From a virus (taxonomy: Duplodnaviria; Heunggongvirae; Uroviricota; Caudoviricetes): a stretch of 45,246 nt of DNA. A program made the translations under genes and the position numbers. The stretch is from IMG/VR virus record IMGVR_UViG_2711768010_000017. One strand, written 5' to 3'. Positions 542 through 45,246 of the stretch are shown here, one piece after another. Positions within the stretch are counted from its first letter, which is position 1; every line of letters starts with the position of its first letter. The notes beneath the pieces were generated by a model. The model worked only from the letters and a program-made list of their open reading frames with translations. It did no database searches and had not been told where the DNA came from.

Positions 542-1579
542 TTAACGCTTATCCGCCACCAGTTTGAGCGCGTGTTCCAGCACATTAATGTCTGCACCCG
601 CTTTATGGGCATTTTCACTTAAATAACGCCGCCACTGCCGCGCGCCAGGAATACCCTGGAACAAGCCCAACATATGCCGGGTAATATGGCCGAGATACGT
701 CCCCTGGCTGAGTTCACGCTCAATGTACGGATACATGGCGCGCACTACCGCCACCGGATCGGCATCGGTATCCGAGGAACCAAAGATCTCCCGGTCTACC
801 GCCGCCAGAATACCCGGATTCTGATACGCCTCGCGCCCGACCATCACGCCATCCATATGTTGCAGGTGTGCTTTGGCCTCTTCCAGCGACTTGATACCAC
901 CGTTAATCGACATTGTCAGATGCGGAAAGTCACGCTTCAGTTGATACACACGCGGATAATCGAGTGGCGGGATTTCACGGTTTTCTTTCGGGCTTAACCC
1001 CGAAAGCCAGGCTTTACGTGCGTGGATGATAAACATCTCACACTCGCCTTTGCCGGAAACGGTGTTGATGAAATCGCAGAGAAATTCATAGCTGTCCTGG
1101 TCATCGATGCCAATACGCGTTTTCACCGTCACTGGAATCGACACCACATCGCGCATCGCTTTCACGCAGTCGGCAACCAGCTGCGCATTACCCATCAGAC
1201 ACGCACCAAACATGCCGTTCTGCACCCGGTCAGACGGGCAGCCGACATTCAGGTTGATCTCATCATATCCACGCGCTTCTGCCAGCTTCGCACACTGTGC
1301 CAGCGCCGCCGGATCGCTACCGCCGAGTTGCAACGCTACCGGATGTTCTTCTTCACTGTACGCCAGGTAATCACCTTTACCGTGAATAATCGCCCCTGTG
1401 GTCACCATTTCGGTATACAGCAACGTATTGCGGGAAAGCAGACGCAAGAAATAGCGGCAATGTCTGTCCGTCCAGTCGAGCATAGGAGCAATGCTAAACC
1501 GAGAACTCCAGTAAGCGCCAGTTTTTTCAGGCATCACGCTGGTTTGATTAGTTTTCTGTGTTTCAGGATTATCGTGCAT
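542..1579 (-). CDS. dusA: tRNA-dihydrouridine synthase A
   Basis: 345-aa ORF with conserved Dus core ([26 protein letters not shown]); the prophage integrase starts 88 bp beyond its 5-prime end. Confidence 0.9.
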
Positions 1580-1667: not shown

Positions 1668-2765
1668 ATGGCGTACTATAACATAGAGAAACGACTAAAA
1701 TCCGATGGCACACCACGCTATCGCTGTAATGTGATTATCAAAGAAAAAGGTGTTATCACTTACAGGGAAAGCAAAACATTCCCTAAACATGCTCATGCCA
1801 AAACATGGGGCGCACAGAAAGTGATGGAATTAGATCTATATGGCATTCCATCATCAAATGCTGTTGACGGACTTACAGTCCGTGACTTACTACACAAATA
1901 TTTAAATGACCCAAATGCCGGAGGTAAAGCAGGCCGTACTAAAAGATATGTGCTGGAACTGCTTATGGATAGTGACATCTCCGCGATCAAACTATCTGAA
2001 CTGACAGAAAATGACGTAATTGAACATTGCAGGCTAAGAAACAACGCTGGTGCAGGCCCAGCAACAGTCAGCCACGATGTTAGTTATCTTGGCAGTGTTC
2101 TGGATGCGGCAAAACCTGTATACGGAATCAATTACACATCAAACCCGGCGAAAAGCGCTCGTCCATATCTACTTAAACTCGGTTTGATTGGTAAATCAAA
2201 CCGTCGTAATCGTAGACCAGCATCTGATGAACTGAACATGCTCATTGAAGGCCTTCAACAACGATCTACTCATAAATGCTCAAAAATTCCGTTCGTTGAT
2301 ATCCTCAAATTTTCTGTGTGGTCCTGTATGCGAATCGGAGAAGTATGCCGGTTACGATGGGAAGATCTCGACCAGGAACAAAAATCTATACTAGTAAGAG
2401 ACAGGAAAGATCCACGTAAAAAGGAAGGCAACCATATGAAAGTTGCCTTGCTTGGGGAAGCCTGGGATATCGTCCAGCGACAACCCAAAAAATCAGAATT
2501 CATTTTTCCATATAACAGCACTTCTGTTACCGCAGGATTTCAGAGGGTAAGAAGCAAATTAGGTATTAAAGATCTGAGATACCATGATTTGCGTAGAGAA
2601 GGGGCAAGTCGCTTATTTGAGGCTGGTTTTAGTATTGAGGAAGTCGCTCAGGTTACAGGGCATCGTTCATTAAACGTGCTATGGCAGGTATATACCGAAC
2701 TGTATCCGAAATCTTTACATAATCGTTTTGAAGAACTCCAAAGGAGCAGAAATAAGACCTCTTGA
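1668..2765 (+). CDS. int: Tyrosine integrase of the dusA-targeting family
   Basis: 365-aa ORF with ATG preceded by GAGG RBS; C-terminal catalytic region HDLRREGASRLFEAGFSIEEVAQVTGHRSLNVLWQVY with R/H/R/Y-type signature; sits next to dusA 5-prime end. Confidence 0.85.
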   Translation: MAYYNIEKRLKSDGTPRYRCNVIIKEKGVITYRESKTFPKHAHAKTWGAQKVMELDLYGIPSSNAVDGLTVRDLLHKYLNDPNAGGKAGRTKRYVLELLMDSDISAIKLSELTENDVIEHCRLRNNAGAGPATVSHDVSYLGSVLDAAKPVYGINYTSNPAKSARPYLLKLGLIGKSNRRNRRPASDELNMLIEGLQQRSTHKCSKIPFVDILKFSVWSCMRIGEVCRLRWEDLDQEQKSILVRDRKDPRKKEGNHMKVALLGEAWDIVQRQPKKSEFIFPYNSTSVTAGFQRVRSKLGIKDLRYHDLRREGASRLFEAGFSIEEVAQVTGHRSLNVLWQVYTELYPKSLHNRFEELQRSRNKTS

Positions 2766-3296: not shown

Positions 3297-3848
3297 ATGC
3301 ATGACAATATTTGGTTTACATATAAAGCACGTATCCAAGCGCACCATCGACTAGAATGGCTTGAAAAACACTCTCAATTTATCCTCGTTTGGTATGCTAT
3401 ATTGAGTGCGGTACTTTCAATTGTAACGTTGCGATTTCCAAAGGTTCTAGGAGATAATACAGATGTCGTTGCGGCGATACTTTCAGTGGCTCTACTGGGT
3501 ATTTCTCTGATCGTATCTAACCTAGATTTTCGTGGTCGAGCAATAGCCATGAGAAGGAATTATATTGCACTACAGCGACTCTATTTTGACATTACCACCA
3601 GTCAACAGTTATCTCTTGAACAGAAAGAAAAATATTTTAATTTGCTCAATGAGGTTGAGAATCACCGTGACATAGATGATAAAATTTCAAGGGTAACTCA
3701 AGTTGGACTTAAGACGAGGATCCCCACACAAAAAGAAAAAATAATTGTTATTTTATGGATATTACTTCGAATATTTATTACTGCCGCACTTTATATACTC
3801 CCATTAATATATCTTTGGATTGACTATGACTGCAAGCAGAATTTTTAA
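3297..3848 (+). CDS. Membrane protein with three predicted TM helices; candidate effector partner of the downstream RT
   Basis: 183-aa ORF with AAGGA RBS; hydrophobic segments FILVWYAILSAVLSIVTL, VVAAILSVALLGISLIVSNL and C-terminal IIVILWILLRIFITAALYILPLIYLWI; AT-rich; overlaps RT start by 23 nt. Confidence 0.7.
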   Translation: MHDNIWFTYKARIQAHHRLEWLEKHSQFILVWYAILSAVLSIVTLRFPKVLGDNTDVVAAILSVALLGISLIVSNLDFRGRAIAMRRNYIALQRLYFDITTSQQLSLEQKEKYFNLLNEVENHRDIDDKISRVTQVGLKTRIPTQKEKIIVILWILLRIFITAALYILPLIYLWIDYDCKQNF

Positions 3849-5196
3849 AAAGTCATTCTCGAAAAAAAATCTTCTAAAAGTATACTCTGAAAAAATCAAA
3901 GAATCAGGAGCGATTGGCATAGATCGGATTCGCCCATCAAAACTTGATTTGACAATAAAAAATGAGATCACTTTCATTTTTGAAAAGGTTAATTCTGGCA
4001 ATTACAAATTTACAGCATATAAAGAAAAATTAATATCTAAAGGCGCTAACTCTACACCCAGACAGATTTCCATACCAACTGCTAGGGACAGAATTACTCT
4101 TAGAGCTCTCTGTGAATGCCTTACGGAAATATATCCTAAGTCCAGATTAAAACTACCACATACAGTAATTGACTCATTGAAAGAAGCATTAAACAACAGT
4201 CTATATGCTGAATATGCAAAAATAGATCTTAAAAGTTTCTATCCTTCAATTGAACATAAATTGATAATTAATGCAATAAAAAATAAAATTAGAAAAAAAG
4301 AAATTAGACAGTTAATAACATCATCATTAATCGTGCCTACTGTAAGTGGAACCACAGGAAGCAAAGGTATCCCTAATAATACCAGAGGAGTACCTCAGGG
4401 ATTAGCGATATCAAACATTTTAGCTGAAATATCACTATCTAATTTCGATGATGAAATCAATAAAATGCATGACATATGGTACATGCGATACGTTGATGAC
4501 ATTCTTATTTTAACACCAAAATATCAAGCAACAAAAATAGCTTCTCATATCATTGATAAGCTTCAATCATTAAATTTAAACCCACATCCATTAAATGAAG
4601 AGAACTCAAAATCCAAAGTAGGCAGCTTGGATGAAAGTTTCAACTTTTTGGGCTACCACATAAAAAATCGAGAATTATTGATAAAACATGAGAGCATTCT
4701 TAGATTTGAGTCATCCTTAGCAAAAATTTTTACTGCATATAGACACGCTCTACTACAAGCTAAAAATAAGCGCGATAAAGAACGAGCTGTTGCATATTGT
4801 CAGTGGAAACTAAATCTTAGAATTACGGGATGTGTGTTTGAAGGTAAACGATTGGGATGGGTATCGTACTTCTCACAAATAACGTCAACAGCTCAACTTC
4901 GAGCTGTTAATCATACGATCAATAATCTTATCCGCCGATTCGGCCTTTCATCAGAAATAAAACCAAAGTCTTTGATTAAAACTTTCTATGAACTCCGCAG
5001 GGGTAGAGCGGAGACTTTTAAATACATACCTAACTTTGACAATCTACATATATCTCAGAAACGAGAAATTGTTTCTATGTGGATAGGGAAAGAGAATGAA
5101 AAAAAACTTAGCAATAGTGAAATAGAGAGAAAATTTAAATTTAAAATTGCGAAATCAGTAAAAGAGCTTGAAGAGGACATTTCAGGGATATCATAG
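3826..5196 (+). CDS. Reverse transcriptase (defence-associated type, retron-like or UG/Abi-like; family unassigned)
   Basis: RT motifs in order: GIDRIR, RQISIPTARDRITLRAL, KIDLKSFYPSIEH, GVPQGLAISNILAEI, YMRYVDDILIL (YxDD), FNFLGYHI; about 200-aa C-terminal extension; first ATG at 3826 (track start 3820 is TTG). Confidence 0.85.
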   Translation: MTASRIFKKSFSKKNLLKVYSEKIKESGAIGIDRIRPSKLDLTIKNEITFIFEKVNSGNYKFTAYKEKLISKGANSTPRQISIPTARDRITLRALCECLTEIYPKSRLKLPHTVIDSLKEALNNSLYAEYAKIDLKSFYPSIEHKLIINAIKNKIRKKEIRQLITSSLIVPTVSGTTGSKGIPNNTRGVPQGLAISNILAEISLSNFDDEINKMHDIWYMRYVDDILILTPKYQATKIASHIIDKLQSLNLNPHPLNEENSKSKVGSLDESFNFLGYHIKNRELLIKHESILRFESSLAKIFTAYRHALLQAKNKRDKERAVAYCQWKLNLRITGCVFEGKRLGWVSYFSQITSTAQLRAVNHTINNLIRRFGLSSEIKPKSLIKTFYELRRGRAETFKYIPNFDNLHISQKREIVSMWIGKENEKKLSNSEIERKFKFKIAKSVKELEEDISGIS

Positions 5197-41883: not shown

Positions 41884-42708
41884 ATGTCTCAGAACTTAGA
41901 CGCAACCGCAATTAATCAAATCCATGCCCTTATTTCTGCTCAGGGTGTTAATGAAATTATCAGTAAGATTGGTGCCGATGCTGTGGCATTGCCTGAGAAT
42001 TTCCGCATTCATGATCTGGAAAAATTAAATTTAAATCGTTTCCGTTTCCGTGGTGCGCTTTCCACTGCCAGCATCGATGACTTTACTCGTTATTCTAAAG
42101 ATCTTGCAGATGAAGGCACCCGCTGCTTTATCGATGCTGATAATATGCGTGCCGTCAGTGTTCTTAACCTGGGTACTATTGATGAACCAGGTCACGCAGA
42201 TAACACCGCCACTCTCAAACTGAAAAAGACAGCTCCGTTCTCTGCTCTGTTGTCTGTTAATGGCGAGCGTAACTCCCAGAAGTCACTGGCAGAATGGATT
42301 GAAGACTGGGCCGACTACCTTGTGGGCTTTGATGCTAATGGTGACGCCATTCAGGCAACCAAAGCGGCTGCGGCGATCCGTAAAATCACAATTGAAGCGA
42401 ACCAGACCGCTGATTTTGAAGATAATGACTTCAGCGGCAAACGCTCCCTGATGGAGTCTGTCGAAGCGAAGACCAAAGACATTATGCCAGTGGCATTTGA
42501 ATTTAAATGCGTTCCGTTTGAAGGTCTGAAAGAACGTCCGTTTAAATTACGCCTCAGCATTATCACTGGCGATCGTCCTGTACTGGTTCTGCGCATTATT
42601 CAGCTGGAAGCGGTACAGGAAGAAATGGCTAACGAATTTCGTGATCTGCTTGTTGAGAAATTCAAAGACAGCAAAGTAGAAACCTTTATTGGTACTTTCA
42701 CCGCCTGA
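41884..42708 (+). CDS. Hypothetical prophage protein (DUF2303/YfdQ-like by recollection)
   Basis: 274-aa ORF with GAGGA RBS; no catalytic motif recognised. Confidence 0.55.
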
Positions 42709-42884
42709 TTTCATTACTGCAAATGCCCCTGCGGGGGCATTTACGGAAGCGATAATTTTAACTATTGCCGCCCCTATAAAGAACCATTAAACAATAACGT
42801 GACGTAGCTATTGATAGTAAATGAAGCACTTGCAAAATAATTGCATTGCGTATATATACACACATGTGTTGTATTACAGCGATA

Positions 42885-43679
42885 ATGGTAAAGCAAATGA
42901 TTAACTCTGAAGCAATTGAGCAACTAATGTGGCTATGGTCCTTATTTGACATTAAATTCTTATCTATTCTTGCCGCTGCCTTCACTATATATTTTGGCGT
43001 GCAAAAAATATCAAAAAAGGTGACAGTGTCGTATTCAGCAAATGCAAGTAGAATATATGACATGCATATATCAACCATAATCCTGAATAATAAAAGAGAT
43101 AATGCAATTGCTATATCTTCAATCAATATGGAGGTTGAAGGTAAAGGGATACTACAAGTTATTAAATTTGACTCCCCTCTTCTTTTAAAGAACTATGATT
43201 CTTTAAAAGTTGAACCACCAAAATTTAGCAGCCTTTACAATAATGATGGCGTAGTTAAGTTAGATATTTCTGATAAGTTTCATTTTTATATAATCACGAC
43301 ATCTGGAGATGAAATTAAATGTATTTCTGAAAATAAATATGTAGCACCAAACATGGAAAACAAAATAGCTACAGACATAAGAAAATTTAATGGCATTGTC
43401 TTAACAAACAGAATGTCTTATATTTTTTTCTATGCAAATGACAACGGAGAGAAATACTGCATAATAGATGTTTCATTGTTCATAAATGGTGACAACCCAT
43501 TTCATTTTAATTTTTTAAAAGAAGATGAATTAAGAGATTTTTCTAGCATCCTTATTAGTTACGGATATCACCAACAGTTTAAAAGTTATGCATTGTTTAA
43601 AATAGACAACCATCTTGCTCCTTCTTTGGTTTTAAATAAATCAATGATAGAAAATAATATTATTGAAATGAATAAGTAA
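42885..43679 (+). CDS. AT-rich N-terminally membrane-anchored protein (candidate exclusion/abortive-infection moron)
   Basis: About 264 aa from first ATG; N-terminal TM helix LMWLWSLFDIKFLSILAAAFTIYFGV; strongly AT-rich compared with flanks. Confidence 0.55.
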   Translation: MVKQMINSEAIEQLMWLWSLFDIKFLSILAAAFTIYFGVQKISKKVTVSYSANASRIYDMHISTIILNNKRDNAIAISSINMEVEGKGILQVIKFDSPLLLKNYDSLKVEPPKFSSLYNNDGVVKLDISDKFHFYIITTSGDEIKCISENKYVAPNMENKIATDIRKFNGIVLTNRMSYIFFYANDNGEKYCIIDVSLFINGDNPFHFNFLKEDELRDFSSILISYGYHQQFKSYALFKIDNHLAPSLVLNKSMIENNIIEMNK

Positions 43680-43715
43680 CTCACCGGGTGCAGCCGGTTA
43701 TGATGGAGAAATGAT

Positions 43716-43997
43716 ATGAATACCTTGTTTTTACTGATGGCTGAATTCAATACCCCAAACATTGAACTCTCAGCAGTTAGTCAAAAATACTTTGGTATGA
43801 GTCCAGCCACAGCAGAAGCAAAAGCAAACGCTTGTAAGTTGCCTGTACCTACATATCGCATCGGTACATCACAAAAAGCAAAACGTTGCATCAATATTCA
43901 GGATCTTGCGGAATACATAGACAAAAGACGAGAAGAAGGACGTATCGAGTGGGAACAGGTCAGAACAGGCAAACAGAAGGGCAAAGAACATCACTAA
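43716..43997 (+). CDS. Small DNA-binding regulator (PrtN/pyocin-activator-like by recollection)
   Basis: 93-aa ORF with GGAG RBS; basic C-terminus; followed by a terminator. Confidence 0.45.
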   Translation: MNTLFLLMAEFNTPNIELSAVSQKYFGMSPATAEAKANACKLPVPTYRIGTSQKAKRCINIQDLAEYIDKRREEGRIEWEQVRTGKQKGKEHH

Positions 43998-44025
43998 AGA
44001 AAAAACCCGCCTAAAGGCGGGTTTT
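43998..44025. terminator. Bidirectional rho-independent terminator between convergent transcription units
   Basis: cccgcc-taaa-ggcggg hairpin flanked by A-run and T-run. Confidence 0.65.
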
Positions 44026-44044
44026 CAAAAAGCACCAGCTATGA

Positions 44045-44218
44045 TCATGCTGCTTTGCGACGACGAAGCTTACCCTGCTGCTCTTTACCAGAGACAGTAG
44101 CGTGAGTGAACGCATTAGGAGCAGCCTTCATCAGAACTTCAACAGCAGCACCCATACCTGCGAATGCTTTCATTGTGTCGAACTTAACCTGTGGCTTGGT
44201 TGCTTTTTGATCTTCCAT
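44045..44218 (-). CDS. Small basic protein (57 aa), below the ORF-track length cutoff
   Basis: ATG with GGAG RBS 7 nt upstream; product MEDQKATKPQVKFDTMKAFAGMGAAVEVLMKAAPNAFTHATVSGKEQQGKLRRRKAA. Confidence 0.4.
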   Translation of the reverse strand: MEDQKATKPQVKFDTMKAFAGMGAAVEVLMKAAPNAFTHATVSGKEQQGKLRRRKAA

Positions 44219-44257
44219 AGAAAACTCCAGAAGCTATACCGAAACAATTCCTGTTGT

Positions 44258-44677
44258 TTACTCATCATCAATAGATGATACGCAATATTTATTTTTAAAT
44301 TTAAGGTTCTTTGGCGTAACTTCATCAGATATATCAAAACCGTCCAGAATTCTATTGAATGTAGCTTCTGGCATATCATCATGAACGGAAATCTCACCCG
44401 ATCGCTGCTTTCTAACCATGTTATCCACTCGCCAAATTATAGCTTCAGCGTAAACAACATAACTTGGATGCTTGATAAAGCGATGATCACCAGAATTCAA
44501 GACGCAAGACGGATCGTGGGGGACACCATCCTTGATACTAGAAATATTAACAACTAAAACACAATAACAATCGTTAACGGGGTAATAAACAGGATCATTA
44601 CAAATCACATGAAGATGATTGCATGGCCCAGTTGGGGCAAGCACAGTTCCTTTCCTGTATGGCTGATAATCCGTCAT
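44258..44677 (-). CDS. Hypothetical 139-aa protein, candidate toxin partner of the upstream Panacea-like protein
   Basis: ATG overlaps the stop of the upstream gene (ATGA); Cys/His-rich segment CNHLHVICNDPVYYPVNDCYC; no recognisable family. Confidence 0.5.
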   Translation of the reverse strand: MTDYQPYRKGTVLAPTGPCNHLHVICNDPVYYPVNDCYCVLVVNISSIKDGVPHDPSCVLNSGDHRFIKHPSYVVYAEAIIWRVDNMVRKQRSGEISVHDDMPEATFNRILDGFDISDEVTPKNLKFKNKYCVSSIDDE

Positions 44678-45246
44678 GATAATTGCAAAGAAAATTCCTT
44701 AAGTTTCTGAGATTCTTCCATTTTGCCAATTATACGATTAGCCTCATCCTCGCTTTTACCCTCACTGATCAGCATTTCTTTCAGGTCTATAGGCTTACGA
44801 GAATTGCCAGGATTGTGCCACTCTGGACAAACGCTTTCTAAATGCGTCATGTTTGCGAGATCAAATCGGTTCATATGCCCATACAGAGAATAGATTTCAT
44901 CTAAAATCCGGATATCTGCACGGCTCAACTCATCAAAGACCTCGTCTGCATCCATTTCCCTCGGATCTGAACGCAACAACACATCATGCCCGTTCGTCTC
45001 TATCAGGTTGTACCAGTAGTCACCAATACCTTCAGCCTTACCACGAATCAAGTTCAGCGTATTCGACATGACTGGACCAAATTTCATAGAGTAAAGGCTA
45101 TCTTCGCCGATCATCCTGCCATGCTTCAAAATCGACTTGCGGTTAGACAGATAGAGCAGCTTCATCAATTTCAGATATGCCATGCGCCCACCTCGCTTAA
45201 GAAGTAGGTATGCAGCCATTTGAGCTACTTTTTCTTCGCAAAACAT
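44674..45246 (-). CDS. Panacea/DUF4065-like (SocA-like) protein, candidate antitoxin; 5-prime end at window edge
   Basis: MAYLKLMKLLYLSNRKSILKHGRMIGEDSLYSMKFGPVMSN resembles the Panacea antitoxin domain signature as recalled; ORF reaches the window boundary. Confidence 0.55.
   Translation of the reverse strand: MFCEEKVAQMAAYLLLKRGGRMAYLKLMKLLYLSNRKSILKHGRMIGEDSLYSMKFGPVMSNTLNLIRGKAEGIGDYWYNLIETNGHDVLLRSDPREMDADEVFDELSRADIRILDEIYSLYGHMNRFDLANMTHLESVCPEWHNPGNSRKPIDLKEMLISEGKSEDEANRIIGKMEESQKLKEFSLQLS

Follow-up and report, generated by a model that had tools for sequence, protein, structure and literature searches.

A probable PanA-PanT toxin-antitoxin pair carried by a dusA-integrated lambdoid prophage of Escherichia coli

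Panacea-domain systems and the overlapping gene pair

SocA, the antitoxin of the Caulobacter type VI toxin-antitoxin (TA) system SocAB, is the founding Panacea-domain antitoxin. In this study, we analyzed a viral DNA stretch of 45,246 nucleotides (IMG/VR record IMGVR_UViG_2711768010_000017; the whole stretch is called the window below), whose last 1.2 kb carries a gene for a Panacea-domain protein (panA) overlapping a gene for a 139-aa protein (panT), followed by a gene for a 57-aa protein. In the survey of Panacea genes by Kurata et al. 2022 (PNAS, PMC8832971), 88 toxin clusters were predicted beside these genes and nine pairs were validated. Cluster T6 includes the Pseudomonas moraviensis pair WP_083201923.1 / WP_083354365.1 with the status 'TA', and its toxin is assigned there to the RNases of the EndoA/PemK/MazF family by HHpred. 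This toxin is toxic, is neutralized by its PanA, was recovered in a complex with PanA by pull-down and specifically inhibits 35S-Met incorporation (PMC8832971). Our results suggest that panA and panT are very probably a two-gene type II TA module of the PanA-PanT kind, carried as exchangeable cargo by a lambdoid prophage integrated in dusA of E. coli.

The E. coli locus resembles the P. moraviensis pair in several respects. Both have the antitoxin gene first and overlapping the toxin gene, a PanA without an extra N-terminal domain, and a toxin of about 132-139 aa that has no Pfam or CDD match and is MazF-like by structure or by HHpred. The antitoxin identity between the two systems is ~46%, as measured on the closely related pair of Pseudomonas phage Sirocco; the PanA described here is 46% identical to Sirocco PanA, whose first ten residues (MIFSEQKVAQ) are the extension that Kurata et al. 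gave to P. moraviensis PanA. The differences lie in the toxin and in the setting. The E. coli toxin has a 7-aa C-terminal extension and extra His/Cys residues (H23, C26, C19, C37 and C39) that are specific to an enterobacterial subgroup, and its gene is prophage cargo, whereas the P. moraviensis locus is flagged 'NotPhage' in the supplementary entry considered.

The initial annotation, made from the sequence, had described the upstream gene as a Panacea-like gene cut by the window edge. The domain was confirmed by profile search: PanA matched Pfam SocA_Panacea (PF13274) over residues 27-137 with E=1.8e-18 and 67.9 bits (cut-off 25.7). The gene itself is complete and not truncated, because the window ends exactly at its ATG, the RefSeq coding sequence (CDS; WP_000458583.1) covers the same 573 nt, and PanA homologues begin at the same residue. 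In the host record, a GAGG motif lies 9 nt upstream of this ATG. Single-sequence AlphaFold prediction of PanA reached a pLDDT of only 42 and gave no structural information on the C-terminal tail or the interface.

The two genes overlap by 4 nt, as had been noticed before. Positions 44674-44677 read tcat on the plus strand and ATGA on the minus strand, so that the TGA of panA and the ATG of panT share this motif. No Shine-Dalgarno motif was visible in the 20 nt preceding the panT ATG on the coding strand (GAATTTTCTTTGCAATTATC). The ATGA overlap and the missing Shine-Dalgarno motif fit translational coupling of panT to panA. On the 5' side of panA, no inverted repeat that could be an operator was found, and promoter-like matches were not enriched (5 versus 6.0 expected in shuffled sequences).

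The arrangement is widely conserved. A genome scan collected 26 PanT loci from alpha-, beta- and gamma-proteobacteria, with toxin identities of 30-87%, and 24 of them had enough upstream DNA to be informative. In every one of these 24, PanA lies directly upstream of the toxin on the same strand, usually with a 4-nt overlap; at least 11 other loci share the -4 geometry, and the Pseudomonas and Chimaeribacter loci have -1. A third gene beside the pair is not conserved among the loci. The same PanA-PanT order occurs in Yersinia phage YeP1, in Pseudomonas phage Sirocco and in Pseudomonas chromosomes. Since the order is the same in all informative loci of three proteobacterial classes, the pair is not a chance arrangement. 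Judged from gene order and overlap, the two genes are a conserved PanA-PanT-type pair with probable translational coupling. Among 5426 complete E. coli genomes, 208 (about 4%) have the pair, always on the chromosome and essentially at full length in 206. The earlier proposal of a TA pair is thus supported by the Panacea domain, by the conserved overlapping pairing and by the homology to a P. moraviensis protein taken to be the validated T6 toxin.

RefSeq starts panT at an internal GTG 11 codons downstream, giving a 128-aa 'hypothetical protein' (WP_014640052.1). The N-terminal stretch M-x-x-Y-x-P-Y-R-K-G-T is kept among PanT homologues, and for this reason the ATG within the ATGA overlap, which gives 139 aa, appears to be the better start. 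With the RefSeq/PGAP start (window 44644-44677, minus strand), panT is deprived of the ATGA overlap and of 11 conserved residues. Similar shortening, to 103-108 aa versus 132-135 aa, affects many WP_ records of Pseudomonas and Halomonas homologues.

Annotation of the toxin gene is also incomplete in phage Sirocco (OR683410; our locus L030). Its PanT homologue at 1486-1884 on the plus strand is unannotated; what the record shows within it instead is a 44-aa CDS (1741-1875) running on the opposite strand. The Sirocco pair neighbors the portal gene at the end of the genome, and the PanT homologue is followed by a 139-aa membrane-like open reading frame (ORF) at 1917-2336 without annotated function.

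Toxin fold and the link to cluster T6

No match for the 139-aa protein was found in Pfam, NCBIfam or PADLOC. In PHROGs it belongs to phrog_19071 (unknown function), and the initial homologue search returned 62 clusters, all of hypothetical proteins. The PanT profile matched 3341 proteins at E<=1e-3, of which 1725 reached E<=1e-10, when it was run against all 50%-identity representatives. The PanT family is a large one without a curated or Pfam model; ten distant representatives are all metagenomic.

The AlphaFold model of PanT, built on a 37-sequence alignment, was confident (pLDDT 93.6, pTM 0.87). Foldseek of this model against the PDB gave MazF for all of the best 50 matches, and a search of a viral structure library put PemK-like phage proteins on top. 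PanT is accordingly modeled as an SH3-like barrel of the MazF/PemK/CcdB kind with two extra C-terminal helices. The signal for the toxin family came from fold comparison only, and phmmer of PanT against PDB sequences gave noise or nothing.

In this fold the E. coli pair can be compared with MazEF and Kis-Kid (PemIK), which are likewise bicistronic with the antitoxin first and have translation arrest as the expected outcome. The antitoxin of those systems has an AbrB/MazE fold, whereas PanA has a Panacea domain, and PanT shows no detectable sequence or profile similarity to their toxins. In the model, the beta1-beta2 loop is very short compared with MazF, a long loop at residues 48-71 bears D55, C58 and H65, the two C-terminal helices are additional, and the set of conserved residues does not include the MazF Arg. 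CcdB of the F plasmid CcdAB system scored below every MazF match.

Across 127 diverse PanT members, H21, L22, D55, C58, H65, F67, S/T72, Y76, G113, S/T117 and S/T47 are invariant or nearly so, and the S/T at position 47, the end of the long central strand, is 97% conserved. The Cys/His-rich segment of the protein had been pointed out in the initial annotation. It does not characterize the family: only H21, C58 and H65 among the Cys/His residues are conserved across it, and H23 and C26 are restricted to the enterobacterial subgroup. A Cys/His zinc ribbon as the family hallmark was dropped because H23 and C26 are not conserved outside that subgroup.

PanT aligned with the P. moraviensis protein SDU72800.1, from the corresponding 90% cluster, at 43% identity over 120 aa (E=6e-34). 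The representative of this cluster sits after a SocA_Panacea gene with a 1-nt overlap. PanT is also 48% identical to the Sirocco toxin. In Dataset S1 (PMC8832971), cluster T6 lists Pantoea septica LMG 5345 (order A then T, overlap -4) and 'Yersiniaceae bacterium 2016Iso4' (order A then T, overlap -1). Two of our own loci, L009 and L008, were fetched independently and proved to be these two strains, with geometry identical to that given in the entries. Proteus, Pluralibacter, Methyloprofundus and Halomonas are listed in the same T6 entries, and Halomonas meridiana and Halomonas stevensii relatives are found in T6 as well. Taken by sequence relationship, PanT is a member of cluster T6. The accessions of the E. 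coli pair were not found among the PanAT supplementary entries considered, including those of PMC8832971. The 139-aa protein had been suggested to be a new toxin domain; this idea did not hold, as the protein has a predicted MazF/PemK/CcdB fold, belongs to a family of 3341 representatives and falls in an already described PanT cluster with a validated P. moraviensis member.

The 57-aa gene, the cargo slot and the prophage

The 57-aa ORF noticed in the initial annotation is a real gene: it is annotated in RefSeq (WP_000390072.1), and its entire length matches phrog_2741 (E=8e-36). Its product is indeed basic (11 K/R versus 5 D/E), and a GGAG motif lies 8-11 nt ahead of its ATG. The gene is probably co-transcribed with the pair up to a shared terminator. 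What did not stand is the idea that it adds a further part to the system. None of the 26 other genome loci, and none of the phage loci bearing the pair, contains it. The number of E. coli genomes with the gene is 562, versus 208 with the pair. In phage mEp460 and in O157:H7 and O145:H28 prophages at the same dusA site, the gene occurs without the pair, after a 177-aa gene of unknown function. Because of its absence from the other pair loci, its greater frequency and its different upstream gene elsewhere, the 57-aa gene is not a component of the TA module.

The homology between these two prophage types ends ~10 nt upstream of the 57-aa ATG. As the gene follows either PanAT or the 177-aa gene at the same dusA site with this break in homology, the stretch between it and the attachment site behaves as a variable cargo slot, with PanAT as one alternative filling. 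The slot comprises window positions 44219-45246 together with the adjoining host DNA; it was compared with 3730-4605 of locus L036, 3730-4605 of L037 and 3675-4743 of L002. The alternative cargo, the 177-aa hypothetical protein WP_000956557.1, matched nothing in Pfam or PADLOC.

The lambdoid prophage that makes up the window is integrated in E. coli dusA, and the coordinates of its relevant features are collected in Table 1. A DinI-like gene also lies at the window start. The SLATT-domain protein and the UG17-class reverse transcriptase constitute a DRT-type anti-phage defense system at the prophage end opposite the pair. The pair is found at the prophage end remote from the integrase, ~250 bp from the leftover dusA 5' fragment just beyond the window. 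Several E. coli chromosomes match the terminal region with 100% identity, and RefSeq labels the genes there as 'Panacea domain-containing protein', two hypothetical proteins and a PrtN-family protein.

Table 1. Features of the window (positions are those of the 45,246-nt stretch)
Feature	Position	Strand	Remarks
panA, 190 aa, complete antitoxin gene	44674-45246	-	Pfam PF13274; Panacea domain only, no extra N-terminal domain; helical, acidic C-terminal tail
panT, 139-aa predicted toxin gene	44258-44677	-	predicted MazF/PemK-like fold; assigned to PanT cluster T6
ATGA overlap, panA stop/panT start	44674-44677	-	probable translational coupling; read from sequence
57-aa basic gene	44045-44218	-	phrog_2741; neighboring prophage gene outside the TA module
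GC-rich hairpin with T-runs on both sides	44001-44026	strand-neutral	bidirectional terminator; terminator scan of the identical host record (L001 8347-8322)
PrtN-family gene	43716-43997	+	PF11112 E=3e-23; convergent with the 57-aa gene
dusA	542-1579		window start
integrase	1668-2765		beside dusA
SLATT-domain protein	3297-3848	+	PADLOC RTasSLATT E=1.5e-56
UG17-class reverse transcriptase	3820-5196	+	PADLOC RT_UG17 E=1e-158

The terminator is common to the minus-strand unit of panA, panT and the 57-aa gene and to the convergent PrtN-family gene. An Rfam scan of 42700-45246 gave sub-threshold matches only, all on the terminator hairpin. Seven such matches within 43993-44096 (rnk leader, RNAI, P9, sroH and others) stack on this hairpin, and they are chance resemblance to a generic hairpin followed by a T-run.

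The PrtN-family ('pyocin activator') gene occupies the usual lambdoid place of an excisionase-like gene. Between yfdQ and this gene lies a strongly AT-rich ORF (42846-43679, plus strand; GC 28-30% versus about 45-50% around it). The ORF measures 277 aa when counted from the first start, and RefSeq gives it 260 aa. Its only match is phrog_14996, of unknown function, and it looks like separately acquired cargo.

Proposed mechanism and alternative explanations

In the type II module that we consider very probable, panA, coding for the Panacea domain only, would be translated first. panT would probably then be translated by the ribosomes terminating at the overlap, as it appears to have no ribosome-binding site of its own, and this coupling would hold toxin output at or below antitoxin output. 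By homology to the P. moraviensis member, free PanT would be expected to block protein synthesis and so arrest growth, and it would most likely be a sequence-specific endoribonuclease; H21, D55, H65, S/T47, S/T72, Y76 and S/T117, all family-invariant, are candidates for the active site. PanA would neutralize PanT through direct binding, as was shown for the homologue. The likely role of the module would be prophage stabilization and/or abortive-infection defense, which is proposed because the prophage has the module in a variable cargo slot and a DRT system besides.

Several points weigh against this explanation. The evidence on the E. coli copy consists of sequence, fold and homology, and the functional data come from the P. 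moraviensis homologue. SDU72800.1 was taken to be WP_083201923.1 only on the agreement of species, cluster, gene order and -1 overlap. The P. moraviensis toxin is itself only a putative RNase, for which weak membrane depolarization was also seen, and several predicted PanTs are non-toxic in E. coli, including those of an E. coli and a Salmonella-phage pair, which belong to another cluster, T1 (PMC8832971). On the side of the sequence, Pfam PemK (PF02452) matched neither PanT nor any of 25 family members at E<=1, the PanT family profile found no MazF sequence among the PDB sequences, and hhalign of PanT against a thin alignment of five MazF/Kid/ChpBK sequences gave a probability of 0.4%. PanT shows no evident counterpart of the canonical MazF catalytic Arg, and a metal site would be an equally good reading of its conserved His/Asp/Cys/His set.

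These last points bear on what the barrel does. It could be a CcdB-like gyrase poison, or a metal-dependent enzyme using H21/D55/C58/H65, instead of a metal-independent RNase. The missing profile similarity to MazF, the lack of a conserved Arg at the MazF catalytic position and the invariance of the His, Asp, Cys and His residues in the family all speak for such an activity. We nevertheless consider it quite unlikely, as metabolic labeling showed the T6 homologue to inhibit translation specifically and not replication (PMC8832971), and the 97% conserved S/T47 is in a place comparable to that of the MazF catalytic Thr, if the two positions are equivalent. A broader form of this idea is also unlikely, though somewhat less so. 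T6 PanT would keep the MazF barrel with its own invariant set (His21, Asp55, Cys58, His65, Ser72 and Tyr76) replacing the MazF catalytic residues, and would have a different chemistry or target, for instance as a nuclease, two-histidine or metal-assisted, that attacks a specific tRNA or rRNA. In E. coli prophages, a PanA that senses phages would set it free as an effector of abortive infection. A tentative possibility, and a more serious one, is that the same two proteins serve primarily in abortive infection or anti-phage defense, with PanA sensing infection and then releasing or activating the MazF-like effector, and not in classical addiction. The variable slot in which other prophages bear a different gene, the DRT system at the other end of the same prophage and the presence of the pair in several temperate phages agree with a defense function. 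Against it, no PADLOC model matches PanA or PanT, and phage-challenge data for any T6 PanAT were not found in a limited search of the PanAT literature. Such a function would extend the type II TA explanation rather than exclude it.

The remaining alternatives concern the composition of the system and the way in which the toxin is controlled. PanA could act like SocA and deliver the toxin to ClpXP for degradation without direct inhibition, given that SocAB shares the Panacea/DUF4065 antitoxin and that PanA gives a faint match to the NCBIfam SocA_antitoxin equivalog (NF047745). This match reaches 13.5 bits against a cut-off of 190, the SocAB toxin is unrelated to PanT, which has a predicted MazF fold and not the SocB fold, and neutralization in T6 pairs is by direct binding, as indicated by the stable P. 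moraviensis complex obtained by pull-down (PMC8832971). A SocAB-type system is therefore very improbable, and it was rejected on the failed equivalog. Equally rejected, on the distribution data, was a three-gene system with the 57-aa protein as an accessory component. The gene is on the same strand, 39 nt from panT, has its own GGAG and is probably co-transcribed with panT, as no terminator lies between them. Its absence from the other pair loci, its larger number of host genomes, the 177-aa gene that precedes it in the other prophages and the break of homology just ahead of it leave this composition with hardly any probability.

The pairing of Panacea with MazF-like toxins was already published in 2022, and the E. 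coli pair is a further member of this published and validated PanA-PanT kind, with a T6 toxin of predicted MazF fold. It will not surprise a TA specialist. Through the analysis, a pair found in about 4% of complete E. coli genomes obtains an annotation at the level of function and a tie to an experimentally validated homologue; its toxin has been labeled 'hypothetical protein' and given a wrong start codon. It also flags a large family without a Pfam model. If T6 PanT does prove to have an altered chemistry, it would define a sizeable uncharacterized enzyme family, with more than 3000 representatives at 50% identity. Finally, further accessory or defense genes may usefully be sought in the swappable slot at the end of dusA-integrated prophages.
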